DNA from: Candidatus Eiseniibacteriota bacterium
GTDB lineage: Bacteria > Joyebacterota > Joyebacteria > Joyebacterales > Joyebacteraceae
Direction: 5' to 3'
DNA: 64,000 bases
Assembly (NCBI GenBank): GCA_043819135.1
Contig: JBDRFG010000072.1
Location: 8,240-72,239, forward strand
This document shows, piece by piece, positions 12,275-53,084 of this stretch (its first letter is position 1; the number at the start of each line of letters is the position of its first letter). The position numbers were made by a program, and so were the translations under genes. The notes below the pieces were generated by a model, which saw only the letters and a program-made list of their open reading frames with translations, did no database searches and had not been told where the DNA came from.

Positions 12275-12337
12275 CGTTGCTGCTCCCGAACGGCAGCGGG
12301 GCCTTCCCCGCACCGTCGAATCCCAACCCGTGCACGG

Positions 12338-12790
12338 TCAGAACGTCAGCCGCGCCCGGGCTATGTCCGTAAGAGGTATGGACAGCTCCTCGCCATCCGT
12401 GAGCGCAATGCGGACGACGCCACCCTCGGCGCCCCCTATCACGCCCTCTATCACATTCCGGCCCTCGCTGTCGTCTCTCAACACGAGGCGAGCTTCACGA
12501 CCGGCGAAGTGGACGTACTCCCTTTCCTTCTTGAGGCGATGGTCGAGACCCGGGGAACTGACCTCGAGAACGTAACCGCTTGCGAGTTCCGGCTCCGCGT
12601 CCAGCAGATAGGACACCTCGCGACTGACGGTCCCGCAGTCCTCGAGTGAAACGCCGCCGTGGGCGTCGATGCAGAAGCGGAAGGTCCTTCTCCCGTGCTC
12701 GACGACCTCGTCCACGTCCACCAGAACGAAGCCCATCCCCTCGACGAGACCCCGGGAGAGTGAGTAGAGCTTCTCGTCCATTCGTTCCAT
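12338..12790 (-). CDS. rimP: Ribosome maturation factor RimP
   Basis: ...GMGFVLVDVDEV...RFCIDAHGGVSLEDC...LEVSSPGLDHRL. Start reassigned to internal MERMDEK. Confidence 0.85.
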   Translation of the reverse strand: MERMDEKLYSLSRGLVEGMGFVLVDVDEVVEHGRRTFRFCIDAHGGVSLEDCGTVSREVSYLLDAEPELASGYVLEVSSPGLDHRLKKEREYVHFAGREARLVLRDDSEGRNVIEGVIGGAEGGVVRIALTDGEELSIPLTDIARARLTF

Positions 12791-12945
12791 CCGAAACCTC
12801 GCAACGGGCCCCAATACGACAAAAGCGGGCCCCCTGCCCACTTCCCGAGTGACAACGTAGCACGCCCCTGTGAACGACGCAAGGGAAAAAGCGTGCGGGA
12901 AACGCTACGCTCGTGCTGTTGCGAGGCAGATGTCAGAGGCGCCGA

Positions 12946-13857
12946 CTAGTAGATGAGCTCCGCGAGGACCGCCCCGACCTCCCTCAGGCTCCTGGGGCTG
13001 CACTTGTCAGGCGTGTCCCCTACGGTGTGCCAGTGGGCGTAGTCGAAGTCGATTATCAGGACGGCCGGAACGCCCGCCTGAATGAGAGGAATATGATCGT
13101 CGAACATCGCCGTGCCCGGCCCGTCGCTGAAGCTCGTCGCTCCTACGCGCTCTGCCGCGTCCCAGACCATCCTTACTATCGAGGGACAAGCGCTCGCCGA
13201 ATTCGGCTCGACGGGAATCGCGAGGTCGCGGTCTCCGACCATGTCCACGACCACGGCGTAGGCCGGTGCGTAGTCGCCCATTCTGCCCGCGAAGACGGTC
13301 GAGCCGATGCAGAAGTTGTCGAATCCGCCTCCGTTGCCTCCGTCCTCGCCGTCGAAGAAGACAAGGTCCACGCCAACATCGGGACTCCGCACCGACATCA
13401 TCGACGCAAGCGCCAGCAGAACGGCGACGCCGGACGCCCCGTCGTTGGCTCCACTGATCGGCGTGGCGCGGTTCATCTCGTCCGGATCGCGCTCCGCTAT
13501 CCGCCTCGTGTCCCAGTGCGCGCCGAAAAGCACCCTCTCCCGAGCGTCCATCCGGAAGGAGGCGATCACGTTCGAGAGCTTGACCTCCAGGCCGTCCGTG
13601 TCCAGCACCGTGAACTGCTGCACCGAGACCTCGTCGGCGTACCCCTGCAGGACGCCAATGAGCCACTCGCGCATGGCCTCGTGCGCGTCGCTTCCGGGCG
13701 GCCTCGGGCCGAACTCGCATTGCCGTTCGAGGAAGGTGAAGGCCAGATCGCCGTCGTACTCGGGCCTTCCGCAACCGGCCACAAAGGTGACCAGCACGAC
13801 AGCTCCGATAAGCACGAACACGGCGGCCGTGCGCCTGACAACATCGCGAGCAGCCAC
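12946..13857 (-). CDS. M28-family zinc metallo-lipoprotein, glutaminyl-cyclase-like (or aminopeptidase)
   Basis: Lipoprotein signal with lipobox (LVTFVAGC). Metal-ligand blocks HWDT, GANDGASGVAVLLALA, FFDGEDGG, VVDMVG, AHWHT parallel animal-type QC and M28 aminopeptidases. GTG start overlaps the stop of the giant upstream gene by 1 nt. Confidence 0.7.
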   Translation of the reverse strand: MAARDVVRRTAAVFVLIGAVVLVTFVAGCGRPEYDGDLAFTFLERQCEFGPRPPGSDAHEAMREWLIGVLQGYADEVSVQQFTVLDTDGLEVKLSNVIASFRMDARERVLFGAHWDTRRIAERDPDEMNRATPISGANDGASGVAVLLALASMMSVRSPDVGVDLVFFDGEDGGNGGGFDNFCIGSTVFAGRMGDYAPAYAVVVDMVGDRDLAIPVEPNSASACPSIVRMVWDAAERVGATSFSDGPGTAMFDDHIPLIQAGVPAVLIIDFDYAHWHTVGDTPDKCSPRSLREVGAVLAELIY

Positions 13858-16800
13858 TAGAACTTGAACTCCGCTGAGAGGTGCATGCCGATCGTTCGGC
13901 GCGTCTGGTCCCGCTTCTCGTCTCGGCTCTGCGAGAAGCTGATCTGCAGGCCGCCGGACACGCTTCTCGAGAAGCTGTAAGTGAGGTCCGTTGTCACCGA
14001 GAAGTCGCGCGTCGATGACGTCGGGTCTACCTGAAGCAGCCCGTGCTCGTCCTGGGCCGTTCGCGACACTTTCGCAGATGTGCGCAGGGTCAGCGACGTA
14101 TCCAGGTTGCTCTGGAACTTCAGTTTCTGCCCGAAGAATGGGAGCTTGAGACCCTGGGGTGCCGAGAATCTGTAGTTCAGGCTCAGGCTCATCGAGCCCG
14201 TGTCATCCTCGTTCACCGATCCTGCCCCCGTGAGGATGTAGCTCCTCGTCGTCCTCTTGTCCCACGAGAAATTGCCGGTGACTCCATTCTTGAACGTGGT
14301 GTCCACCGAGATCACCGGGTTCATACCGAACGCCTTGGCTCGGGTGGTCGGCTCGTCGGCCGGCCCGGAGTGAGAACGCTTGTACTCGACCCCGCTTCTC
14401 GCTCCGATCTTCGAGCACACGTTTGAGAGTGGCCCCAGCTTCTCGATGCCGTTCCACGAAAGCGTGCCCTTCCCACTCTCGCTCGTCGACCCTGTCTCCG
14501 TCGTCAGAGTGACCGAATCCGACAGGGCATTCTTGTACCAGCGTCCACCCGTGGTTCTCTTGTAGGAACCCTTCACACGCACCTGGCTCGTGACCTTCAG
14601 TCCCGAGTCGAGCGAGAGGGTGCGTTCCTCCGTACGGTCATCCGCCCCTTCACCGCTCGAGAGCCCGAGGCGATAGCTCCAGTCCGGCAACTGGCCAGCC
14701 GTGATCCGGTCGTACCGAGAGCTGGTCTTGATCGAGTAACGCGCCTCGATCGCGTCCGTGTTTCTCACAAGCGTCAGCACCGGACGTATCAGGTCTCCGA
14801 ACCCCGGACCCAGCGCCCCCTCATCGCCCTCCTCCGCGGACGTTTCCCCTTCGCCTCTCGTGGCCGCCGGCGGTTCACCCCCTTCGCCGCTCGGGGCCGT
14901 CGGCGGTTCATTCCCTTCGCCGCTCGGGGCCGTCGGCGGTTCATCACCGTCGCCGTTCTCGTCGACGCTGTCCCGACCCGCCTCCCGCGCGTCGGTGCGC
15001 TCGTCGACGCGTGGTGCCGTCTCTTCATCCGCATCGCCGGACGTCTCGGTCGGCTTCTCCTCGCGGTCTCCGCCCTCCCTGGTCTCCCTCCTGCCTCTGG
15101 GAGTGCCGCTCCGCGGAGTAGACGCCGGACCGAGCAGCTTCTTGATATCGAAGCTCGCACGTATGTCCTGGTTGTTCTGGGCACGCACGTCCCTGATACC
15201 GAAGGGGTCGCCCGCGCGGCGCACCTGCGGCCCGTGATTGTCCGTGAACGAAGAGCTGAAGCTGTACTGCGGCGCGAACCACCTCCCGAACTTGGGGTTG
15301 AAGCTCAGCGAGTTCGAATAGCGACGTTCGGTCTCGACCCCCGCGTTCAGATCGTAGACGACCCGGTTGATTGGTTCGAGATCCCGCTTCACCGCCACGC
15401 TGTGAGAGGTCCTGAGATTCTCCAGGAACTGGAAATCGATTCCCGCGTCCGCGTTCAGTTTCTTGTCGTGATTGTTCGAGCGCTGGGTCTTCACGCCGAT
15501 GGCCGAGATGTCGTAGTTCTGCGTGCGGATCAGGTGAACGTCCGTGTTGAATCTGAAGCTGGTCGGCTTGAGAAACAGCTCGGTGTTCCCGAACAGCCGC
15601 AGTCCCTGCTTCTCGGGAGAATACCTGTACGAGAGCCTGCCCCTGAGAGTTCTCGAGGTGTCGGCCTTCGTCGGAGACGCCTTCTCATGCTCGGCCAGCG
15701 ACGCGCGCAGCGACAATCCGTCCACGAGGAGATGCGTCCAGAAGTCGGGAGACTGTCGCTTCCTCGAAAGCGAAACCGCTATGCTCCTGTCGAGCGTCTC
15801 TGTCTTCTCGGACGCGCTCTGCTCCTCATCGAGCACGATGTCGGACCCGCTCGAGAATTTGGGTCTGCTGACCGATCGCTTCCACGTGACGTTGACCGGG
15901 GTCGATACGCCCAGCGCACTAACGAAACGATCCGCGTTCATCGTTCCTGTGAAATTGTAGGTGATGTTGTCCTGCCCGGAGCCGCGTAGCTGTTTCAGCG
16001 AATGGAACTCTCCGTCGACGTGCCTGAGGTCGAAGTCAACGTCGAGGAAGTCGGCAAACCTGGCCTCGACCGTCGCCCTCTCGGCCCAGCCGAGGTCTCT
16101 TCGGACCTCCGACAGACGGATGTCGTCCAACCACACCTCACCGGTGATGTCGGACGCGGCGGCCGCTTCGTTCCTGATACCCACAGTGAGCCGGCGGATC
16201 CTGGAGAGCGAGGGCCACCCCACGCGCCTGAACGTCTCCCCGCTGTACGCGCCCTCCGTCTCGGCCTCGTCCAGCGTGGCGAACTCGCCGAGCTTGAGGT
16301 CCGTGAAGCTTGTGAACGGGACAGTCAGAAGGTTGTCCCCGCTGCTCCTGTCCTGAAGCCACCCCGACCGGACTTCCAGGCTGTACTCGTAGTAGTTGAG
16401 CGAGTCGCGCCCCAGCCGCATGAAGAACACCGTGCCGTCCTCTACGGCGGCGCCACCGTGCAGGTAGAAGTCGAACGACTGATAGCCCGTGTAGTCCTCT
16501 TCGGAGTAGAACACCTTCCTTGCAGACGCCGTGTGCTCGCTACGCAGGTTCTCGTAGAGCAAGAAGATCGACTGTTCGCGCTTCGGAAGATTGGTGTCCT
16601 CATCAATTCCAGGATCAAACGGGGGATCGTAGTCCACGTCCTCCTTGGTGTTCTTCGTTCCGACCCGGAATCCCATGTCCCCCATGTTCTGGTCTGGAAC
16701 GACCTCGCCGTCCTCGTCGACGATCGGGCGCGGCTCCCACTGGCTCCCGACGATGTCCATCGACCCTATCATTATCTCGCCCGCGCCCACCGCAAGCCCG

Positions 16801-19800
16801 TTGGCCCAGATGCGAGCCGACTTAATCGACGTCCACGTGGCCATTCCGTTGGGCGACTCCGCGTGAGACAGCGGGAAGCGGTACTTCCTCCAGTAGTTGC
16901 CCGCGACCAGTTTGCTGTTGTCCTGGACGCGATACGTCGTGTCCGCCAGGTCAACCGTCAGCGTCCAGTAGCTGTTGTCCTGGTCCACGTACCCGTTCCC
17001 GTTCAGATCCTCCGTGTCCAGGCGCTCGTTGCCCTCTGTGCCGTTGATCTTCGAGTAGTCGTCGGAGTCGTATTCGAACTTGTAGTCGTCGTCGCCATCA
17101 TCGCCCGGCACGCCCTGCCCGTCGACGCCCGCCACCGTGTCGAGCCCGACGTCCTCGTCGGCGTCGAAACCGTTCGGTGGTACATCCACGTCTTCCGTCT
17201 CGAGCTCGCCGTTCGGCGACATCAGAGGGTAGTAGTCCTCGCTGATGTTTCCCAGATCGATGTAGAACGTACCGGTGGACTGCTCGATGGGTGCGCCGTC
17301 GTTTACCCACAGTTCGACGAACTGGTAGTCGGAGTAGTCGCTGCCGGTCTTGGACAGAAGTCTCATCAGTCCGGCCCACGACGCGGACCCGTCGGAGTCA
17401 TACGCGATCTCGAGCACGGTGTGAGAGTCGTCGGCTTCCTGCGCGGGCAGATCGGGATGAAGGTCGCCTTCCTGTACCTTGCGCTCCGGGTTGTACCAGT
17501 AGATATCCATCCGGTCTGACGCATCTATCTCGGGGAGATCGGGCACGCTGGAGGGGACCCACAGCCGTCTGGAGACGCCGAGCATGCTGACGTTCTCCGC
17601 CCCCTCCATGTCGTCGACGGACACGAATCCCTTGGTGTTCGGATTGGGTATCGACACGGCGGCCTCGGCGGAGATCTTCAACCGTGACTCCGCGTCCGTC
17701 TCGATGAAGGGAATCGCATCGACCACGCGGGTCATGAGCTCGGGCGTGAAGTCTGCTGAGAGGTTAACGTCGCCCACGACCGTCCGCGACGGCTCCTCAC
17801 CCAGCCGGGGACGATCCTCGGGCGTTCCCTTGCTCTGGTACATCCAGGTCGTCCCAAGCCTGATCTTCTCGCTCCAGTTGTAGACGCCCCTGGCTCCAAG
17901 CAGCGTTTTCTCACCCGCGATGCCGAAGGGCTTGTAGTCGTACTCGACAGTAACCTTGGCGTCGGGCTCCTTTGCCTCCTCCGCGAGGATCGTCAGCTGA
18001 CCGGCCGGATAATAGATGGTGTAGTCGGTACCACGCGTCAGCCTGACACCGTTCAGTCGGACGACCTCGCTGTTCTCAATGATGTTTATCTGACCGAGAT
18101 AGAACGTGGTCCTCGGACGGTTGTACTTGACGACGATGTAGTAGTCGTCGTCGCCCGCATCGAAGTTGTCCTTCGAGTAGACGGAGCAGTTCTTCTCGCT
18201 GTCTGAGAACTCGTCCGCGTAGTAGATGGGGTCGGGGCCGCCATCCGGCGCGTAGTAGAATCCCGTCGTGTCGTAGTCGGGGCAGAACGGTGTGAAGTGC
18301 GGAAAGCTGAGAAGGCCGTTCGTCAAGTCGAGCCAGGTCGGGTCCACATCACTGGAGCCAACACCGATCTCCTCGGTGTCCAGTCCAAGGAGCTTCGTGT
18401 ACGGCACGCCCGACTCATGGACTTCCTGGTCCTCCCCCGACGCGGCCGACCTGCGGATCGTCAGCTGGAACCCCTCTTCGGGAATGTCCTCTGCTCCCAG
18501 GTCGTAGATGTGCTTAAGTTCGTAGAGCCGTGTGCGTTCCCACCCGGTCGGCGTCGTGCTGTCGTCGTGCTTCATGAGCTTCAGGTACAGCGTCTGACTG
18601 CCCGCATCGTATCCGCCGACCGACACCGTGCCGCCGCCGTCCGTTACGCGCCCGTAGCTGACCGCGAGCATCTTCCCCTGCGTTATAGGGCGGGTCAGAA
18701 CGATCACACCCAGCTGGTAGCCGGATTCCTCGCCGTAGATCCCACTGCCCTGTGGGATGAAGTAGTCCTCGTTCTCGATGAGCTCGACAAAGAAACCCTC
18801 GCGACTGTAGGTAGCGTCGGCCGGAGGAGCTGCGCCCGGAGGCTCCTCGAGGTAGGCGATTCCCTCCTGCGCACCGTCCGACGTGTCGTTGGAGGAGATC
18901 CGGTCGTCCAGGTAGACTCTGATATTCTGGGCGCCAACATTGGAGTACTTGAGCGCCAGGTCGTCGATGACGAAGAACTTCCCGGCCCTGTACGAGATGT
19001 CCCTGATAACCAGCGAGTCCGATTCCGACGTGCCCGTGAAGTTCGCGCCCGCGGACTTGCCCTCCTCCTTGCTCGCAACGGTGACAAGCTCGAGCTTGCC
19101 TACCTTGGCCGTCATCTTCGCGCCGAAGAGGCCTTGGTGGTGACCGCTGTAGCTGACGAACTCCGTGCCCGGCAGCGACAGGTTGACCTCTCCGAGCTCT
19201 ATCTTCTGGATGATCTCGTCCTCGTCGCCTTCGTAGTGGACCCTGATCTGGTCCGCCTTGCTCCCGCCGAACGTGTCGCCTCCACTGCGATGGTCGACGT
19301 AGACGTGGATCTTGCGGCCGATCGTCCCCTCGAGATTGACCGTGAGCTGCTGCTGCATGTCCAGCTGGGGAAATCTCGACGGGCGCCCCGACTCTGTCTC
19401 GAGCGCCTCGACAACGTAGCTCGTCTGGCCACCGAACGTGATCCGCTCGCTACCACGCACCTTGAGATTCGCGCCCGGACCGATGGCCCGGACGAAGGGA
19501 CCGGGCAGCGGCATCGGTATGTCGATGTCGAGGAGGCCACGCCCCTGGCCGGTCTCAGCTCTGCCCAGCCTCTTGTGTATGACCTTCTCCCAGGCCTCCA
19601 GCACCATCGCGTCGCCCGCAAGGCGCTGATATTCGGCCAGTGGCGCCGCATAGCTCACCCACGACGTATGCTTGCCCACATCCGTAACAATGGTCATCGT
19701 CCCGTTCTCGTGGTCCACGACCACCCTCCGTGAGAACGGGACGGACGACGGGGCTCCCGGCGGCATCGAGGGCCGTCCTACCGCCAGACCCTTTGGCCGC

Positions 19801-20168
19801 GCGTCCACCAGAGACCAGGGCCTGAAGAAGGCGCTGTCCCGCTTGGGAAGAACCGAAACGCCGGGCGCGTAGGGCGCACGCGCGATCTCGGGCTCAGCAA
19901 CGGCGGGCAGGGAATCGGCACCCGCCGTACCGAGGCTGTCAGGTACGACGCCGAAGAGCGTTGTGGGTGCGAGGCTGTCAGGTGGGACCGTCGAGATCAT
20001 CGCGGAGTCAGCAGGCGAGCCCCCCTCCTCGAGGACCGCCGGCTCGCCGCCACCCCCGCTCTCATCGGTTCCGAGGACAGGACCCGTGGCGCAGAGCAGC
20101 AAAATGAACGCGAAGACCGTCGCGGCTGTCGGAGAGACTGTCGTCCGGACGGCGCCATCGAGAAACAT
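13857..20168 (-). CDS. Giant (2104 aa) secreted outer-membrane beta-barrel protein, SprA-like (candidate T9SS translocon); function unproven
   Basis: Start reassigned to MFLDGAVR (GGAG RBS about 11 nt upstream), which gives a classic signal peptide. C-terminus ...GMHLSAEFKF has the OMP terminal-Phe signature with alternating amphipathic strands. Very rich in D/G/S/T/Y/N. Size is in the range of SprA. Confidence 0.5.
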   Translation of the reverse strand: MFLDGAVRTTVSPTAATVFAFILLLCATGPVLGTDESGGGGEPAVLEEGGSPADSAMISTVPPDSLAPTTLFGVVPDSLGTAGADSLPAVAEPEIARAPYAPGVSVLPKRDSAFFRPWSLVDARPKGLAVGRPSMPPGAPSSVPFSRRVVVDHENGTMTIVTDVGKHTSWVSYAAPLAEYQRLAGDAMVLEAWEKVIHKRLGRAETGQGRGLLDIDIPMPLPGPFVRAIGPGANLKVRGSERITFGGQTSYVVEALETESGRPSRFPQLDMQQQLTVNLEGTIGRKIHVYVDHRSGGDTFGGSKADQIRVHYEGDEDEIIQKIELGEVNLSLPGTEFVSYSGHHQGLFGAKMTAKVGKLELVTVASKEEGKSAGANFTGTSESDSLVIRDISYRAGKFFVIDDLALKYSNVGAQNIRVYLDDRISSNDTSDGAQEGIAYLEEPPGAAPPADATYSREGFFVELIENEDYFIPQGSGIYGEESGYQLGVIVLTRPITQGKMLAVSYGRVTDGGGTVSVGGYDAGSQTLYLKLMKHDDSTTPTGWERTRLYELKHIYDLGAEDIPEEGFQLTIRRSAASGEDQEVHESGVPYTKLLGLDTEEIGVGSSDVDPTWLDLTNGLLSFPHFTPFCPDYDTTGFYYAPDGGPDPIYYADEFSDSEKNCSVYSKDNFDAGDDDYYIVVKYNRPRTTFYLGQINIIENSEVVRLNGVRLTRGTDYTIYYPAGQLTILAEEAKEPDAKVTVEYDYKPFGIAGEKTLLGARGVYNWSEKIRLGTTWMYQSKGTPEDRPRLGEEPSRTVVGDVNLSADFTPELMTRVVDAIPFIETDAESRLKISAEAAVSIPNPNTKGFVSVDDMEGAENVSMLGVSRRLWVPSSVPDLPEIDASDRMDIYWYNPERKVQEGDLHPDLPAQEADDSHTVLEIAYDSDGSASWAGLMRLLSKTGSDYSDYQFVELWVNDGAPIEQSTGTFYIDLGNISEDYYPLMSPNGELETEDVDVPPNGFDADEDVGLDTVAGVDGQGVPGDDGDDDYKFEYDSDDYSKINGTEGNERLDTEDLNGNGYVDQDNSYWTLTVDLADTTYRVQDNSKLVAGNYWRKYRFPLSHAESPNGMATWTSIKSARIWANGLAVGAGEIMIGSMDIVGSQWEPRPIVDEDGEVVPDQNMGDMGFRVGTKNTKEDVDYDPPFDPGIDEDTNLPKREQSIFLLYENLRSEHTASARKVFYSEEDYTGYQSFDFYLHGGAAVEDGTVFFMRLGRDSLNYYEYSLEVRSGWLQDRSSGDNLLTVPFTSFTDLKLGEFATLDEAETEGAYSGETFRRVGWPSLSRIRRLTVGIRNEAAAASDITGEVWLDDIRLSEVRRDLGWAERATVEARFADFLDVDFDLRHVDGEFHSLKQLRGSGQDNITYNFTGTMNADRFVSALGVSTPVNVTWKRSVSRPKFSSGSDIVLDEEQSASEKTETLDRSIAVSLSRKRQSPDFWTHLLVDGLSLRASLAEHEKASPTKADTSRTLRGRLSYRYSPEKQGLRLFGNTELFLKPTSFRFNTDVHLIRTQNYDISAIGVKTQRSNNHDKKLNADAGIDFQFLENLRTSHSVAVKRDLEPINRVVYDLNAGVETERRYSNSLSFNPKFGRWFAPQYSFSSSFTDNHGPQVRRAGDPFGIRDVRAQNNQDIRASFDIKKLLGPASTPRSGTPRGRRETREGGDREEKPTETSGDADEETAPRVDERTDAREAGRDSVDENGDGDEPPTAPSGEGNEPPTAPSGEGGEPPAATRGEGETSAEEGDEGALGPGFGDLIRPVLTLVRNTDAIEARYSIKTSSRYDRITAGQLPDWSYRLGLSSGEGADDRTEERTLSLDSGLKVTSQVRVKGSYKRTTGGRWYKNALSDSVTLTTETGSTSESGKGTLSWNGIEKLGPLSNVCSKIGARSGVEYKRSHSGPADEPTTRAKAFGMNPVISVDTTFKNGVTGNFSWDKRTTRSYILTGAGSVNEDDTGSMSLSLNYRFSAPQGLKLPFFGQKLKFQSNLDTSLTLRTSAKVSRTAQDEHGLLQVDPTSSTRDFSVTTDLTYSFSRSVSGGLQISFSQSRDEKRDQTRRTIGMHLSAEFKF
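14846..14944 (-). repeat. Three tandem 30-33-nt repeats inside the giant gene encoding (G/N)EPPTAPSGEG within an acidic disordered insertion
   Basis: Seen in sequence: cccttcgccgctcggggccgtcggcggttca occurs twice plus one degenerate copy. Encodes DEPPTAPSGEGNEPPTAPSGEGGEPPAATRGEG. Confidence 0.8.
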
Positions 20169-20494
20169 GTTAAGGACTCCGCTTTCGAGAAGAACGCCCG
20201 GCGCAGGCCGGGTCGCAGGTGCTCGTGCGCTGGGTCGTGTCTGCCGCGCCCGGCTGACTCCGCGACGATGCCGAGAGGCCGTCCGGTGCACCAGAGACAA
20301 CAGGCCCCGCACGCGGCTTCACGCGAGGCGACATCCGGCCGATACGGCGGAGCGGAATGTAGCAAAGCAAACCGCACATGTCAAGTTGGCCCAGCTCGTG
20401 GTCAGCCGCGTCCCAGGCGTGAATATACAGTGCGTGCATCGCCTCCAATTCCCGGGTTGCGGGCGCTCCGCAGACGATGTCACGGACAATGATA

Positions 20495-20524
20495 TTGCGT
20501 ACGCCGCAGCTTTGGTAGTATAGG
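20495..20524 (+). promoter_or_regulatory. Candidate sigma-70-like promoter for lptF (TTGCGT-N17/18-TAtAgg)
   Basis: Pattern match only, inside a 430-nt divergent intergenic region. Confidence 0.2.
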
Positions 20525-20600
20525 TTGTCTGGGCGCAGCGCAGGCCCATCCCCCGGCCCAGGCCATGTACCGCGGTTGCGGTGCGAATCTCGGATTCCAC

Positions 20601-21956
20601 ATGAGCACTCTGTCCAGGTACGTCCTCAGAGCGCACATCCCCCCCGCCGCAGCGGGGCTCGCTATCTTCTACTTCGTTCTCTCCATGGACTTCATCGTCG
20701 ACTACCTCAACCTCTTCATCGCGAAGGGAGTCCCGGGGCTCGCCGTGCTCGAGGGTTTCCTTCTCAGTCTCGCCTGGATGACGGTCATGGCTGTCCCCAT
20801 GGCGGTGATGGTCGCGGTTCTCACGGCGTTCGGGCGGCTCGCGGGAGACAACGAAATCACTGCCGCGCGGGCCACCGGCGTGAACGTCTTTGCGCTCATT
20901 GCGCCGGTTCTGGGCGCCTCCGTCATCGTCGCCTTCGGGCTCTTCTGGTTCGGGAATCACATGCTCCCGGCCGCGAACCACCGGCTGAAGGTGCTCCTTG
21001 TGGACATCCACAGAATACGTCCCCTCGCTACAATAGAACCTGGAGTCCTCACCAACCTGCCCGGGGGCTACACGATCCTCGTCGACAGGCTTGACTCCAG
21101 AACATCCGAAATCTTCGACGTGAAGATCCACAGGCTGGAGGGCGGAGAGCCCCTCCAGACCATCGTGGCCGAGCGCGGCCGGATCAGCAGCGAGCCGGAG
21201 GACGACTACGTGCGTCTCGAACTCCTGGACGGCGAGATCCACGAGCTGGACCCGAATGATGCGACGCGGTTCAATCGCCTCCTATTCGAGCGCCACGTCA
21301 TCAACATCGAGCAGGGCCACGCCGAGCTCCTCAGGAGTGACGCAGTGAGGCGCGGCGACAGGGAGCTGTCTCTGGCAGAACTGGGCTCCCGCATAGCGCA
21401 GGGACGGGAGGACACCAACGCGGCCCGGGTTGAGCTCGCGGACGGCCTCGAGACGCATCTCGCAGGCCTCCTGGATCGTGCCGACGGAACGTACCCGCCC
21501 GCGCGGCCCGAGGAGGTGCGGGCGGACCGCAGCCGCATGCTGCGGGGCGCCGAGTCGGACCTGCGGGCGGAGGCCAGCGCAGCGAGACAGATGCGCCGTC
21601 TGGAGGTCGAATACCACAAGAAGCTCTCGATCCCGTTCGCCTGCGTGGTCTTCGTGCTTGTCGGCGCGCCGCTGGGCATCAGAAGCAGACACGGGGGAAT
21701 AGGCATCGGGGCAGGAACGGGCATCCTCTTCTTCCTGATCTACTATCTCTTCCTGGTTGGCGGCGAGCAGCTGGGCGATCGCGGCCTGGTTCCGCCGTTC
21801 TGGGCGATGTGGGCCCCGAACGTTCTCTTCGGCGGCCTGGGTCTCTTCCTCACGCTGTCGGTCTCGCGCGAGTGGAGGATCGCCCCCGTGACTAAGGTCG
21901 TGGACTTCGTGATGCGCGCGCCGCGACGGCCCCGGCCGTCCCCGGAGGCCTCATGA
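20601..21956 (+). CDS. lptF: LPS export permease LptF (YjgP/YjgQ family)
   Basis: Six-TM architecture with a large periplasmic domain. Start taken at MSTLSRYVL. Confidence 0.8.
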   Translation: MSTLSRYVLRAHIPPAAAGLAIFYFVLSMDFIVDYLNLFIAKGVPGLAVLEGFLLSLAWMTVMAVPMAVMVAVLTAFGRLAGDNEITAARATGVNVFALIAPVLGASVIVAFGLFWFGNHMLPAANHRLKVLLVDIHRIRPLATIEPGVLTNLPGGYTILVDRLDSRTSEIFDVKIHRLEGGEPLQTIVAERGRISSEPEDDYVRLELLDGEIHELDPNDATRFNRLLFERHVINIEQGHAELLRSDAVRRGDRELSLAELGSRIAQGREDTNAARVELADGLETHLAGLLDRADGTYPPARPEEVRADRSRMLRGAESDLRAEASAARQMRRLEVEYHKKLSIPFACVVFVLVGAPLGIRSRHGGIGIGAGTGILFFLIYYLFLVGGEQLGDRGLVPPFWAMWAPNVLFGGLGLFLTLSVSREWRIAPVTKVVDFVMRAPRRPRPSPEAS

Positions 21957-23026
21957 GTATCATCGACTCATACGCCTTGAGGAAGATAGCCAGACCGTTC
22001 GCGATCGTCCTGTGCCTCTTCGCGGGCGTCTTCGTGTTGGTCGACCTCTTCGACCACGCCCATTCGTTCATCGACAACGACGTCTCGCTGGACGTCGTTC
22101 TCAAGTACTACGCCTATTACCTTCCCCTGATAGTCGTCCTCACCTCCCCCGTCGCAATGCTCCTCGCGACCCTTCTCGCCGTGGGGGGACTGTCGAGGAG
22201 AAACGAGCTGATGGCGCTCAAGGGATCAGGCGTCAGCCTCTACAGGATCCTCGCGCCCGTGCTCGCCCTGTCCGTTCTGGTCAGTCTCGCCAATGTCGTC
22301 ATAGGGGAGTTCGTGCTGCCGCCGGCGACCCGTCATCGGCTCCTGATCAAGGAGACCAGCATCACGCGGCGAGCGAGCCAGACCATCACCAACGACCCGG
22401 TGTACGTGACTCCGGACGGAACGATGTTCCTCGCGCGAAGACTCAACTCGCGGACGAGGACGCTGGAGGAGGTCACCGTCGAGGAATTCGACGAGGCCCA
22501 CCGCCCGACCAACAGGATCGATGCGCAGTCGGCGGTGTGGGAGAACGACGCATGGGTTTTCTACGACGGAAGCCACCGGCGCTTCACGGCGGCCGGCGAA
22601 GAAGTGACAAGCTTCGAACGACTGGAACCGGGCTACTCGGAGCCATTGCCGAGCGAGCTGGACGTCCGCAAGCTGCAACCGGAGGAGATGCCGTATCGGG
22701 AACTGAGGTCCTACATCCTGCGACTCCGGGCCAGCGGCAACGACGCGCGCGATCTGGCCGTGCAGCTGCAGCTCAAGATAGCCTTCCCGTTCGTCGCCGT
22801 TATCATGACGCTGCTGGGTGGGACCCTCGCGGCGGGCGCGCGCCGGAGCGGCTTCGCGCTCTCGTTCGCGGCGGCCCTGACCATCTCGTTCTTCTACTAC
22901 GGAGTGCTGCAGGTGGGCCAGGTACTGGGCCGCCAGGGCATTCTCGTGCCCTGGCTGGCCGCGTGGATCTCAAACATCATCTTCACCGGAGTCGGCGCCT
23001 GGCTCCTCGCCCGCGCGCCCAAGTAG
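21953..23026 (+). CDS. lptG: LPS export permease LptG (YjgP/YjgQ family)
   Basis: 357 aa paralogous permease directly after lptF with a 4-nt overlap. Confidence 0.8.
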   Translation: MSIIDSYALRKIARPFAIVLCLFAGVFVLVDLFDHAHSFIDNDVSLDVVLKYYAYYLPLIVVLTSPVAMLLATLLAVGGLSRRNELMALKGSGVSLYRILAPVLALSVLVSLANVVIGEFVLPPATRHRLLIKETSITRRASQTITNDPVYVTPDGTMFLARRLNSRTRTLEEVTVEEFDEAHRPTNRIDAQSAVWENDAWVFYDGSHRRFTAAGEEVTSFERLEPGYSEPLPSELDVRKLQPEEMPYRELRSYILRLRASGNDARDLAVQLQLKIAFPFVAVIMTLLGGTLAAGARRSGFALSFAAALTISFFYYGVLQVGQVLGRQGILVPWLAAWISNIIFTGVGAWLLARAPK

Positions 23027-50602: not shown

Positions 50603-51631
50603 CTATTCGCCCGTGATATCCAGAAACTCAGGGTCCTCGCGCAGAGGCTCGAAGTCCGTGTCGAGCCTGGCCCTCGGTCCGAGTGACTTGTCAAGACCGA
50701 CGGCGGTGCCGAGTTCCCTCAGTGCCTCGTCCCGCATCCCGGCCTTCGAGTAGTAGCAGGCCAGGTGGTAGTACGGTTCACCGAGCTCCGGATTCAGCTC
50801 CACCGCCGCCCGGCCTGCCTCGAAAGCCCTTTCCCAGTTTTCCTCTTCACAGAGACGGTAGCCTTCGAGAACGAGCGCCCATTCCTTCCACATGTCGAAG
50901 ATCCGCCTCAACTCCGCGATCGGATCCTCGTGGTCATCGACCCGAAGGTCGCAGTAGACGTCGTTGTATCCGCCGTATCCGCCGCCCTCGCGCACTATCA
51001 GGATCGCGGCGGACTGCATACCTCTGGAGTCGCCGCCGGCCGCCTGCCCGGCCTCGAGCGCGCGCATCAGCTTCTCGCCGAGAATGCCCCCGCTCTCGCC
51101 AAACGCGCGAGCCATCGCGTCGACCGTTTTCCCACTGACCAGGATATTTCCTTGCGCCGTGAAGTTCGGCCCGCTCTCGTGACCCGCCCAGTCCATGCAC
51201 TCGTCGCCGGTGTACGCGTGCGAGTTCCCCCCGGCGTCGACCATGCCCACCTGACGCTGCGCGGCGTCCGAATCATGAGCGAGCAGGCTCTCCATCGCCG
51301 CCTCAACGCTCATGCCCTCTTCCAGCATCGCGAGTCCCAGAGGACCGAACGTCGTGTTCCCGTAGGCCTGCGAAGCTACTGCGCCCACGTTCGCCCTGGC
51401 CCAGGGGACCACGGACCCGACGGCGAAGAACTTCGACTGCACGGCGACGCCGAGGTCTCCGGTCGCTGGGTCATACCCGACAATGGAGAACGTCGCGATC
51501 GGCTCCGATGCCGTCGCCGTCCCGTGAAGCGGAAGCGCCACGGCGCACGCGGCCATCATTACGAGCGCGGCCGGGAACGCCTTGCTTGCCTTTCTGATGC
51601 AAGTGTGGGGCCAGATTCCTGAATCACTCAT
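50603..51631 (-). CDS. Secreted DUF1028 (Ntn-hydrolase fold) protein fused to C-terminal TPR-like repeats
   Basis: Signal peptide. Then ATFSIVGYDPATGDLGVAVQSKFFAVGSVVPWARANVGAVASQA (DUF1028 signature with a putative nucleophile right after the signal). C-terminal helical repeats. Confidence 0.65.
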   Translation of the reverse strand: MSDSGIWPHTCIRKASKAFPAALVMMAACAVALPLHGTATASEPIATFSIVGYDPATGDLGVAVQSKFFAVGSVVPWARANVGAVASQAYGNTTFGPLGLAMLEEGMSVEAAMESLLAHDSDAAQRQVGMVDAGGNSHAYTGDECMDWAGHESGPNFTAQGNILVSGKTVDAMARAFGESGGILGEKLMRALEAGQAAGGDSRGMQSAAILIVREGGGYGGYNDVYCDLRVDDHEDPIAELRRIFDMWKEWALVLEGYRLCEEENWERAFEAGRAAVELNPELGEPYYHLACYYSKAGMRDEALRELGTAVGLDKSLGPRARLDTDFEPLREDPEFLDITGE

Positions 51632-52454
51632 CGTGTTCACGTCCTCCCGTGCGGCTTGCCGCATGCCGGATATCGTCACTGAACGGACCCTCACCTATCT
51701 TGCCCAGCAGCTCGTGAAACCACTCCTCCGCCCGCTTGCGCTTCGCGGCAAGATCTTCTTCATCTGCAATAAACATGAGCTCAGTCAGCCGCGTGACGTC
51801 GCTCGCCGGCAGGTCGTAGTGCACGTACCGAGTGTGGAAATTGTGGCGCGTCGGGTCGTGGAGGATCCGCAGCGCCTGCACCAGCGGCCTCAACGTGTAG
51901 GACTGGTAGAAGGCGACCGCCTCGATGACGTTTCCCCTGTTCAGCTCCTTCTTCGTCAGGATCTGGAACAGGCCGAACAGCACGCGGAGCTCAGCCACTC
52001 GCTCCCTGAGCGTCCTGGCGAACGACTCTGCGTCCAGCGGGTCGAAGCGCACGACACCGGTCTTGTCGAAGTAGACGCGGGGCCGTCCGTGGATCGCGGG
52101 CTGCAGGAACTTGTCCTCCGCCCCGGACTTCATCACCACGAAATCCAGCATGAGAAACGGACTCGCACCCTCGAGCGTGTAGAAGGCCTGGGAGTGGCCG
52201 TGCCAGGTGGGCTCCGGCAGACGGTACCTGACGTCCACGGCCGACAGCGTGGCCAGCGTGCGTTCCACGACGCCGAACACGTCCTCCACCCGGTCATCGT
52301 CACAGGCCACCTGAAGGTCTATGTCCGACCATTCGTCGACCCGGTCGAACGAGACCGCCCCCGCTTCCCACATCGCCTGGACGTAATCAAGCGGCTCGAG
52401 GGCGCCTCTCATCGCATCGAGGACCGCCTCACGGCCCACGTCGTACTGCGGCAT
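51624..52454 (-). CDS. Pol-beta-superfamily nucleotidyltransferase (MNT/Lnu/ANT-like) with C-terminal helical domain
   Basis: GAVSFDRVDEWSDIDLQV fits the GS-x9-SDIDL NTase motif. Third carboxylate in MLDFVV. GC somewhat below the local mean. Confidence 0.55.
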   Translation of the reverse strand: MPQYDVGREAVLDAMRGALEPLDYVQAMWEAGAVSFDRVDEWSDIDLQVACDDDRVEDVFGVVERTLATLSAVDVRYRLPEPTWHGHSQAFYTLEGASPFLMLDFVVMKSGAEDKFLQPAIHGRPRVYFDKTGVVRFDPLDAESFARTLRERVAELRVLFGLFQILTKKELNRGNVIEAVAFYQSYTLRPLVQALRILHDPTRHNFHTRYVHYDLPASDVTRLTELMFIADEEDLAAKRKRAEEWFHELLGKIGEGPFSDDIRHAASRTGGREHDE

Positions 52455-52493
52455 GTTGCTCCTCCGCGTGGTTGCGGACCCCGGCTGCGCCGG

Positions 52494-53084
52494 TCAGTCC
52501 TTGAGGTCTCTGACGGTGACTATGCTGAAATCGAGATCCTTGAAGGAGCGCGCTGTCCTCTTCGCCTCCCGGTCGATGGCCTGAGCGCCGCGACCGGAAA
52601 ACTCGTTCTTCTGGATCTGGGAGAGGATGAGCAGCTCGAAGGCGGTCGACCTCATCCAGTCGACGTCGACGCGATACCCGCACACTGCCATCGCCTGCGT
52701 CCTGTCCAGGAAGCGCCTGAGCACCCGCCTGTCTATGCGAAGCGTGCTGCAGGACGAGAACATGATGAAGCGGTTGGCGCACTTGCCCTCCATCAGCTTG
52801 CCAAGGTCATCTATGGAGTAGGAGTGCTTCCCTATCTGCAGCTCTCTGGCGCTGCCATGGGTGGCCAGATAGAGGATGGGATAGCGGTCGTAGCGCTTCT
52901 GCATCCACTTCCCTATGTAGAGTTCGAACTCCTCTATGGTCGCGCAGTCGACGTGGATGTAGTCGATGAGCGCGTTCAGGTTGAGGAGGTCCAGAAGCGG
53001 TTCGACGCTCGAAGGAGTCCGCAGATCCGGATCCCATATCCCCTCGATGCAGAAGATGCCCTTGGTCTGACCTCGCTTTCTCAT
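52494..53084 (-). CDS. Small hypothetical protein with caspase-like (clan-CD-type) His/Cys arrangement; markedly lower GC
   Basis: 196 aa. Hydrophobic strand then HG (ILYLATHGS); about 36 residues later a hydrophobic strand then Cys (RFIMFSSCST). Codon usage is AT-shifted relative to neighbours. Confidence 0.3.
   Translation of the reverse strand: MRKRGQTKGIFCIEGIWDPDLRTPSSVEPLLDLLNLNALIDYIHVDCATIEEFELYIGKWMQKRYDRYPILYLATHGSARELQIGKHSYSIDDLGKLMEGKCANRFIMFSSCSTLRIDRRVLRRFLDRTQAMAVCGYRVDVDWMRSTAFELLILSQIQKNEFSGRGAQAIDREAKRTARSFKDLDFSIVTVRDLKD

Follow-up and report, generated by a model that had tools for sequence, protein, structure and literature searches.

The 64-kb window analyzed here, by which we mean the whole stretch of DNA under study, belongs to a Candidatus Eisenbacteria (Eiseniibacteriota) genome assembled from a metagenome (MAG). 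On its minus strand lies a gene pair in which sprA (sov), predicted to encode the outer-membrane translocon of a type IX secretion system (T9SS), is followed directly by a gene for a predicted glutaminyl cyclase (QC) like that of Porphyromonas gingivalis (PgQC). Both proteins are new members of known families, so that the pair represents no new protein family or mechanism, and the recurring linkage of their genes across phyla of the Fibrobacteres-Chlorobi-Bacteroidetes (FCB) type is a real but modest lead. The explanation we favor, to which we assign a probability of about 0.72, is that sprA and QC form a two-gene unit in which a general pyroglutamate-forming enzyme sits on an inherited gene order.

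Identity of the two proteins

The large open reading frame (ORF) runs from an ATG at 20168 to a TAG at 13859-13857 and encodes 2103 residues; the first-pass annotation had found this ORF, but its figure of 2104 aa includes the stop codon. GenBank has the identical start (MFH1689602.1, 2103 aa), a GGAG stands 10 nt 5' of the ATG, and two close orthologues (P0122 and P0124) start nearly alike, with MFLDGAVRTT and MSLDGAVRTT. The N-terminus contains an Arg, a hydrophobic core (AATVFAFILLLCA) and then ...PVLG-TDE, the putative signal peptide up to its cleavage site being ...AATVFAFILLLCATGPVLG-TDE, and the C-terminus is ...HLSAEFKF, so that the Sec signal peptide and the ...AEFKF ending that had been claimed for the protein can both be read in its translation.

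The first-pass annotation had also proposed TIGR04189 and PF14349 as the check on its SprA call, and both models match the protein above their cut-offs (521 versus 200 bits and 66 versus 27 bits, respectively). TIGR04189, the NCBIfam equivalog 'T9SS outer membrane translocon Sov/SprA', does so in 5 matched stretches with an E value of 6.9e-156. The sole sequence matches in the PDB were to Flavobacterium johnsoniae SprA, 6H3I (E 2.5e-25) and 6H3J (5e-25), in 3 stretches, the best of which covers residues 925-1454. In a tblastn comparison with SprA ORFs from Ignavibacteria, Calditrichia, KSB1 and further phyla, the matches jointly covered query residues ~124-2103 in 1-3 pieces. We conclude that the large protein is, as judged from its sequence, a member of the SprA/Sov family. 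Its acidic insert (Table 1) contains a 33-nt tandem repeat of the EPPTAPSGEG type in 3.4 copies (14845-14955), and an alignment of 10 SprA orthologues limits the long variable insert to Eisenbacteria and the lineage of locus L013, with a short basic linker elsewhere.

The small protein has the same start in GenBank as in the window, where it corresponds with 100% identity and coverage to a protein of a Candidatus Eisenbacteria MAG (P0001). In a sequence search of the PDB its best matches were bacteroidal type II QCs and their structural-genomics counterparts, namely 3GUX, 6QRO (TfQC), 4FUU/7D1D (BtQC), 3TC8 and 6QQL/7CJE (PgQC), with E values of 1e-47 to 1e-51, compared with about 1e-8 for animal QCs and only 1e-6 for an aminopeptidase. 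Its AlphaFold model (predicted local distance difference test score, pLDDT, 87.7) gave the same picture, in that all 50 of the top 50 PDB fold matches are QCs and bacterial QCs head the list with template-modeling (TM) scores of 0.80-0.87; the structure-based identity of the PDB QC matches to the window QC is 30-34%. Together with the active-site hallmarks described below, these matches to the experimentally characterized PgQC, TfQC and BtQC bear out the earlier description of a glutaminyl-cyclase lipoprotein, and the motifs then listed are all present in the translation, as HWDT (residues 114-117), GANDGASG (136-143), FFDGEDGG (167-174), DMVG (205-208) and AHWH (274-277).

The zinc ligands of bacteroidal QCs are D149, D183 and H299, the second Asp being particular to them (PMC7948796, Taudte et al. 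2021). According to the same study, bacteroidal QCs have Gly after the bridging Asp, a position held by Asn or Asp in aminopeptidases and by Ser in animal QCs, and their His ligand is preceded by Trp in place of the Tyr of aminopeptidases (PMC7948796). In the window QC the corresponding predicted ligands are D139, D172 and H277, an Asp/Asp/His set with Asp replacing the animal Glu. Its putative catalytic residues are E171, D205 and D253/D254, matching E201, D248 and D305 of human QC, where we take D253/D254 to be the counterpart of D305. Across 21 QC homologues, whose identity to the window QC is 46-78%, D139-G140, E171-D172, D205, D253-D254-H255 and W276-H277 are invariant, along with G28-C29 of the lipobox, which reads FVAG-C29.

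Alternatively, the small protein could be a di-zinc M28 aminopeptidase and not a cyclase. This would agree with its generic Peptidase_M28 Pfam match and with its GenBank name, 'M28 family peptidase', and all five classical M28 metal-ligand positions are filled; ligand conservation alone has been described as compatible with either activity (PMC5837995, Bochtler 2018). The first-pass annotation had held that retention of all di-zinc ligands would tell against its call, but since true QCs keep all five positions, such retention is uninformative, and the valid markers, namely Asp-Gly, the third-ligand Asp specific to bacteroidal QCs and Trp-His, are all present. The SGAP/AAP type of aminopeptidase is ruled against by Gly140 and Trp276, which stand in place of Asn/Asp and Tyr. 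With an E value of 1e-6 against 1e-50 for QCs, and with no aminopeptidase among the top 50 fold matches, we regard this alternative as very improbable indeed, and we conclude that the small protein is, by its predicted active site and fold, a PgQC-type (type II) QC. Many of its homologues in IMG are already labeled 'glutaminyl-peptide cyclotransferase'. The annotation of both genes can thus be corrected, from 'hypothetical protein ABIE42_05120' to SprA and from 'M28 family peptidase' to glutaminyl cyclase.

About 80% of Bacteroidetes QC orthologues are predicted lipoproteins (PMC5837995). Among the loci we collected, the QCs of L017 and L029-L031 apparently have an ordinary signal peptide and no lipobox, and that of L017 (...KPVAG-QNPPEF) would carry an N-terminal Gln after cleavage, making it a possible substrate of its own.

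At the junction of the two genes, the GTG of QC (13857-13855) shares its G with the TAG of sprA (ctaGTGgct), which is the arrangement that had been reported for it, with QC starting 1 nt inside the sprA stop. The same 1-nt overlap is repeated in five further distinct Eisenbacterial loci, in four of which TAATG or TGATG was read directly, and the QCs of the loci that keep the overlap are only ~54-63% identical to that of the window. Because the overlap recurs in other Eisenbacteria, both the start codon of QC and its translational coupling to sprA are supported.

Table 1. Positions in the window of the sprA-QC pair, its parts and its flanking features
Feature	Position	Strand	Basis or remark
sprA/sov, T9SS outer-membrane translocon, 2103 aa (predicted)	13857..20168	-	TIGR04189, PF14349, PDB 6H3I/6H3J, tblastn
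Sec signal peptide predicted for SprA, residues 1 to ~33, ...PVLG-TDE	20070..20168	-	translation; cleavage site judged by eye
Pfam SprA_N region, residues 1051-1446	15831..17018	-	PF14349 66.4 bits, cut-off 27
Acidic Gly/Pro/Glu-rich low-complexity insert of SprA, residues ~1690-1790	14799..15101	-	tandem repeat and alignment
Type II (PgQC-like) glutaminyl cyclase, predicted 303-aa lipoprotein; lipobox Cys29 at 13771-13773	12946..13857	-	PF04389 99 bits, PDB, AlphaFold
TAGTG junction, sprA stop/QC start	13855..13859	-	1-nt overlap
Promoter-like site, TTGACA, 17-nt spacer, TACATT, with TG	20356..20384	-	sole sigma-70-like match in 12300-21000, 10/12 positions; consensus match only
Weak terminator-like hairpin and T-run, 5-bp stem	12890..12906	-	40 nt after QC stop, before rimP; consensus match only
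lptF and lptG	20565..23026	+	divergent from sprA; PF03739 276 and 291 bits; belong to conserved gene order

Gene order across genomes

Three QC homologues, 64%, 56% and 47% identical to the window QC, each have a gene for a ~2000-aa SprA directly upstream, and the most distant of them (47%) is flanked by murB upstream and by comEA-like, rsmD and coaD genes downstream. A wider scan used a QC profile with one genome per GTDB species, yielding 80 loci that were then compared by tblastn with the window SprA; 8 of the 80 were uninformative, their upstream sequence being shorter than 500 nt. Of the 72 informative genomes, 32 have sprA on the same strand as QC and directly upstream of it. These positives carry the labels Eisenbacteria, Ignavibacteria, Calditrichia, KSB1, Marinimicrobia/Neomarinimicrobiota, Fidelibacterota, Zhuqueibacter and Gemmatimonadales, and they include two Bacteroidota-labeled MAGs and further MAGs. 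The negatives comprise all Poribacteria, Cloacimonadota and Armatimonadota and a Bacteroidota/Ignavibacteria/Kryptonia clade. The Poribacterial QCs are 41-49% identical to that of the window and have no sprA within their upstream sequence of up to 10 kb (L018, L019, L027, L038, L040, L041, L043, L048, L057, L061 and L065). Poribacteria stand outside the classical FCB group, and in one of their loci, L019, QC lies between recR and mnmG.

On a neighbor-joining tree of the QCs, adjacency to sprA is scattered over most of the deep branches. Measured from the sprA stop, the nearest in-frame start codon of QC was at most 33 nt away in 25 of 36 loci measured and 166-239 nt away in Ignavibacteria-like loci; taking the nearest start codon biases this measure toward small values. 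Where sprA is absent, the genes upstream of QC are recR, radical-SAM, comF-like, folE2 and PBP4 genes, with no alternative secretion-related partner among them. None of the best 150 representatives of the QC family is a SprA-QC fusion. The one long match among them, P0277 (801 aa), has a QC domain at residues 522-797 behind an N-terminal part that is unrelated and has hydrophobic stretches, and it shows no similarity to SprA.

The pair is in turn part of a wider conserved order, in which lptG-lptF is divergent from sprA and sprA is followed by QC, prmA and ppx (lptGF<>sprA-QC-prmA-ppx). The places concerned are window positions 12946-23026 and loci L011, L013, L017, L020, L025, L030, L036, L045, L062, L069, L077, L080 and L084. 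In Eisenbacteria, KSB1, Gemmatimonadales, Zhuqueibacter, one Bacteroidota MAG and further MAGs, sprA is preceded by a divergent lptFG. At least 21 loci, whether sprA is present or not, have prmA behind QC at a distance of ~0-750 nt, and sprA-QC-prmA-ppx is complete in one Bacteroidota MAG, L080. We conclude that the pairing is an ancient and widespread gene order and not an invention of the Eisenbacterial genome. The first-pass annotation had called the two genes a candidate module; the pairing itself is real and widespread, but its status as a module is unproven, as unrelated genes belong to the same order.

Substrates and competing explanations

The targets of PgQC in P. gingivalis include 77% of signal-peptidase-I substrates and 86% of T9SS proteins (PMC10653852, Szczesniak 2023). 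The earlier claim that it pyroglutamylates T9SS cargo is therefore right as far as the cargo goes, but the enzyme is not restricted to such cargo, acting as it does on most signal-peptidase-I substrates (PMC10653852).

We looked for the corresponding Gln in the proteins encoded at the collected loci. A Gln follows directly after a plausible AxA-type cleavage site, judged by eye, in 14 of 27 full-length SprA orthologues (AFS-Q, LRA-Q, ARA-Q, ASA-Q, VSA-Q and similar), and SprA is likely to be a frequent, if predicted, QC substrate. Searching separately for homologues of the N-terminal 600 residues of SprA yielded 9 proteins with four usable N-termini, one of them with Gln; low-complexity words probably swamped this search. 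Secreted proteins of Calditrichia, KSB1 and Marinimicrobia loci also often have Gln at the predicted +1 position, which fits a general Q-rule in those lineages. In a signal-peptide and Q-rule scan of 85 loci and the window, the commonest polar residue at +1 was Gln for the FCB-type loci (9 of 63, against 0 of 10 in Poribacteria), a result that is only suggestive, as the home-made predictor gave too many false positives among membrane proteins and the Eisenbacterial secreted proteins numbered two, too few for a Q-value.

Under the explanation we favor, sprA and QC would be transcribed together from a promoter upstream of sprA, and QC would be translated by re-initiation at the sprA stop, such that synthesis of the translocon would entail that of QC. 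Once in the periplasm, QC would act on exported envelope and secreted proteins in which cleavage by signal peptidase I has left an N-terminal Gln, turning this residue into pyroglutamate, which would shield the proteins from aminopeptidases, as shown for P. gingivalis. SprA itself may be a substrate in many lineages, as may other T9SS parts and cargo. The order lptGF<>sprA-QC-prmA-ppx would be an old one, inherited across phyla, and QC would most likely be a general 'Q-rule' enzyme and not a dedicated T9SS subunit.

A number of observations weigh against this explanation. The enzyme activity and membrane location of the QC are predicted, and the putative promoter and terminator are consensus matches only. 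No further T9SS genes (porV/U/K/L/M/N or cargo with a C-terminal domain) were found in the 64 kb, for which Pfam scans covered 22 ORFs including sprA and QC and the other ORFs were judged from their N-terminal sequence. Within Eisenbacteria, Gln follows the signal peptide in ~4 of 9 SprA N-termini; neither the window SprA (VLG-TDE) nor the one other signal-peptidase-I substrate recognized in the window, a secreted DUF1028 protein, has Gln at its predicted +1 position, and no QC substrate is visible in the window. The meaning of the sprA-QC adjacency is weakened by the equal adjacency to unrelated genes. PrmA is a cytoplasmic ribosomal-protein methyltransferase, and both PrmA and Ppx are cytoplasmic, without a plausible link to QC. 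Given that QC and prmA are equally tightly linked and PrmA is unrelated, conserved adjacency alone is no proof of a partnership between sprA and QC.

One alternative is a dedicated partnership, in which QC would be a specialized T9SS accessory in lineages outside Bacteroidota, maturing SprA and cargo or docking on the translocon, with the Bacteroidota Q-rule derived later. That sprA is the only recurrent envelope-related neighbor of QC, under at least 10 phylum-level labels, speaks for such a partnership, as do the stop/start overlaps that have been kept, the fact that roughly half of the SprA orthologues have Gln behind their signal peptide, and what has been called the 'striking phylogenetic coincidence' of T9SS with high Q-values, although the authors of that phrase argued against a mechanistic link (PMC5837995, Bochtler 2018). 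However, QC is just as tightly linked to prmA and ppx, Gln at +1 is also found in ordinary secreted proteins of the same loci, no fusion was seen among the best 150 representatives, and Cloacimonadota, like Poribacteria, have no sprA in up to 10 kb upstream of QC. Papers on the SprA cryo-electron microscopy structure and the Sov interactome name no QC among the partners they identified. PMC5837995 reports that mutation of the N-terminal Gln left RgpB and Kgp activity unaffected and affected that of RgpA, and its authors argue against a role for cyclization in T9SS targeting. We consider a dedicated partnership unlikely. A historical version of it, in which type II QC would have arisen as a T9SS accessory in the sprA operon of an FCB ancestor, the Eisenbacterial QC still serving mainly the translocon and its cargo and the Bacteroidota Q-rule being a later expansion, seems to us slightly more doubtful.

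It is also possible that the pairing has no selective meaning, being the inherited order of slowly rearranging unrelated genes whose co-expression is incidental. The presence of cytoplasmic genes in lptGF<>sprA-QC-prmA-ppx would be expected in that case, as would the gaps of 4-6 nt between QC and prmA in three loci (from ORF coordinates), and a large Bacteroidota/Ignavibacteria/Kryptonia clade retains QC-prmA-ppx with the sprA link lost; in P. gingivalis, moreover, the QC operon consists of QC, PG_2158 and hemG. Yet sprA-QC persists where both outer flanks have changed, being followed by rimP-nusA in Eisenbacteria and lying among murB and comEA-like genes in L005, and the 1-nt overlap has been kept across Eisenbacteria despite the divergence of their QCs. 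A further point is that lptFG, sprA and QC are all genes of the cell envelope. An absence of selective meaning is a tentative possibility that we take seriously without thinking it the probable one. Finally, the large protein might be a homologue of SprA with a role outside the canonical T9SS, for instance in a lineage without motor and ring genes. Its N-terminal ~1000 residues have diverged, its similarity to PDB entries is confined to residues ~925-1454, no other T9SS gene lies in the window, and most of the literature confines T9SS to Bacteroidota; however, one review at least extends T9SS to the wider FCB superphylum (PMC12398890). The equivalog score, far above its cut-off, likewise argues against an orphan of this kind. 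T9SS genes are usually scattered in Bacteroidota genomes, so that their lack within 64 kb is weakly informative as to a complete T9SS in the MAG. We regard an orphan SprA as improbable.

Returning to the two-gene unit with a general enzyme, the literature we searched, whose coverage does not extend to all journals, contained no paper describing a sprA-QC operon or a QC-sprA link, and the earlier statement that the pairing had not been described holds provisionally. Eisenbacteria were not mentioned among the top-ranked papers of the T9SS and QC searches. The Q-rule has been presented as a Bacteroidetes-specific feature, other groups forming a continuum, such as Ignavibacterium album with 77% (PMC5837995), and the text of that paper contains none of the words operon, neighbo(u)r, Sov or SprA. 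The link between sprA and QC gives a concrete genomic handle on the coincidence of T9SS and the Q-rule, which Bochtler et al. noted before dismissing a connection, and PgQC-type cyclases and SprA reach well beyond Bacteroidota, though much of the literature confines them there.

Surroundings of the pair and known systems

The host had been described from the sequence as a high-GC lineage that is not a typical Bacteroidetes, which agrees with its assignment to Candidatus Eisenbacteria and with a GC content of ~62-67% over the window; NCBI taxonomy places Eiseniibacteriota under 'Bacteria candidate phyla'. On the 3' side of the pair follow rimP-nusA-infB-rbfA-nrnA-(truB)-ribF-rpsO-pnp. The rest of the window holds PTS (phosphotransferase system), rpoN, lptB/C, kds, pyrG, ribosomal-protein and other housekeeping genes, as judged from Pfam scans and the N-termini of ORFs. 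Elsewhere on the minus strand (51624-53084), a 276-aa ORF without a Pfam match (51624-52454) comes after a DUF6642 protein (52494-53084), and a secreted DUF1028/TPR protein (50603-51694) adjoins them.

The promoter-like site lies ~190 nt 5' of the sprA start codon. Within the leader it would define, at 20197-20329 on the minus strand, there are two GC-rich hairpins, each followed by a T-rich run; they have no Rfam match, and an Rfam scan of the entire window likewise returned no match. These hairpins could constitute a regulatory leader.

Like SprA of F. johnsoniae (6H3I) and Sov of P. gingivalis, the window SprA belongs to TIGR04189, is longer than 2000 aa, and has the SprA_N region, a Sec signal peptide and an aromatic residue at its C-terminus. 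Unlike them, it belongs to the candidate phylum Eiseniibacteriota, has 2103 aa compared with 2403 aa, resembles 6H3I directly in its central region only, and carries a lineage-specific acidic low-complexity insert of ~100 aa. Its gene also has QC on its 3' side, an arrangement that P. gingivalis does not have.

The window QC resembles PgQC (PG2157/PGN_0202), TfQC (6QRO), BtQC (4FUU/7D1D) and PdQC (3TC8) in being a predicted lipoprotein, in its fold (TM 0.81-0.87), in its D/D/H ligands and in its Asp-Gly, Trp-His and catalytic Glu and Asp residues. It is, however, only 30-34% identical to these bacteroidal type II QCs by structure-based comparison, and its loop preceding the WHT motif is shorter than theirs. 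Whereas the window QC appears translationally coupled to sprA, PgQC heads an operon with PG_2158 and hemG (PMC10653852).

The Q-rule itself (Bochtler 2018; Szczesniak 2023) is described as Bacteroidetes-specific, with only a 'continuum' elsewhere in the FCB group; a mechanistic link to T9SS had been considered and was rejected, and the adjacency to sprA goes unmentioned. What our loci have in common with the Bacteroidetes Q-rule is the same enzyme family, together with a Gln behind the predicted signal peptide in roughly half of the SprA orthologues and many neighboring secreted proteins.

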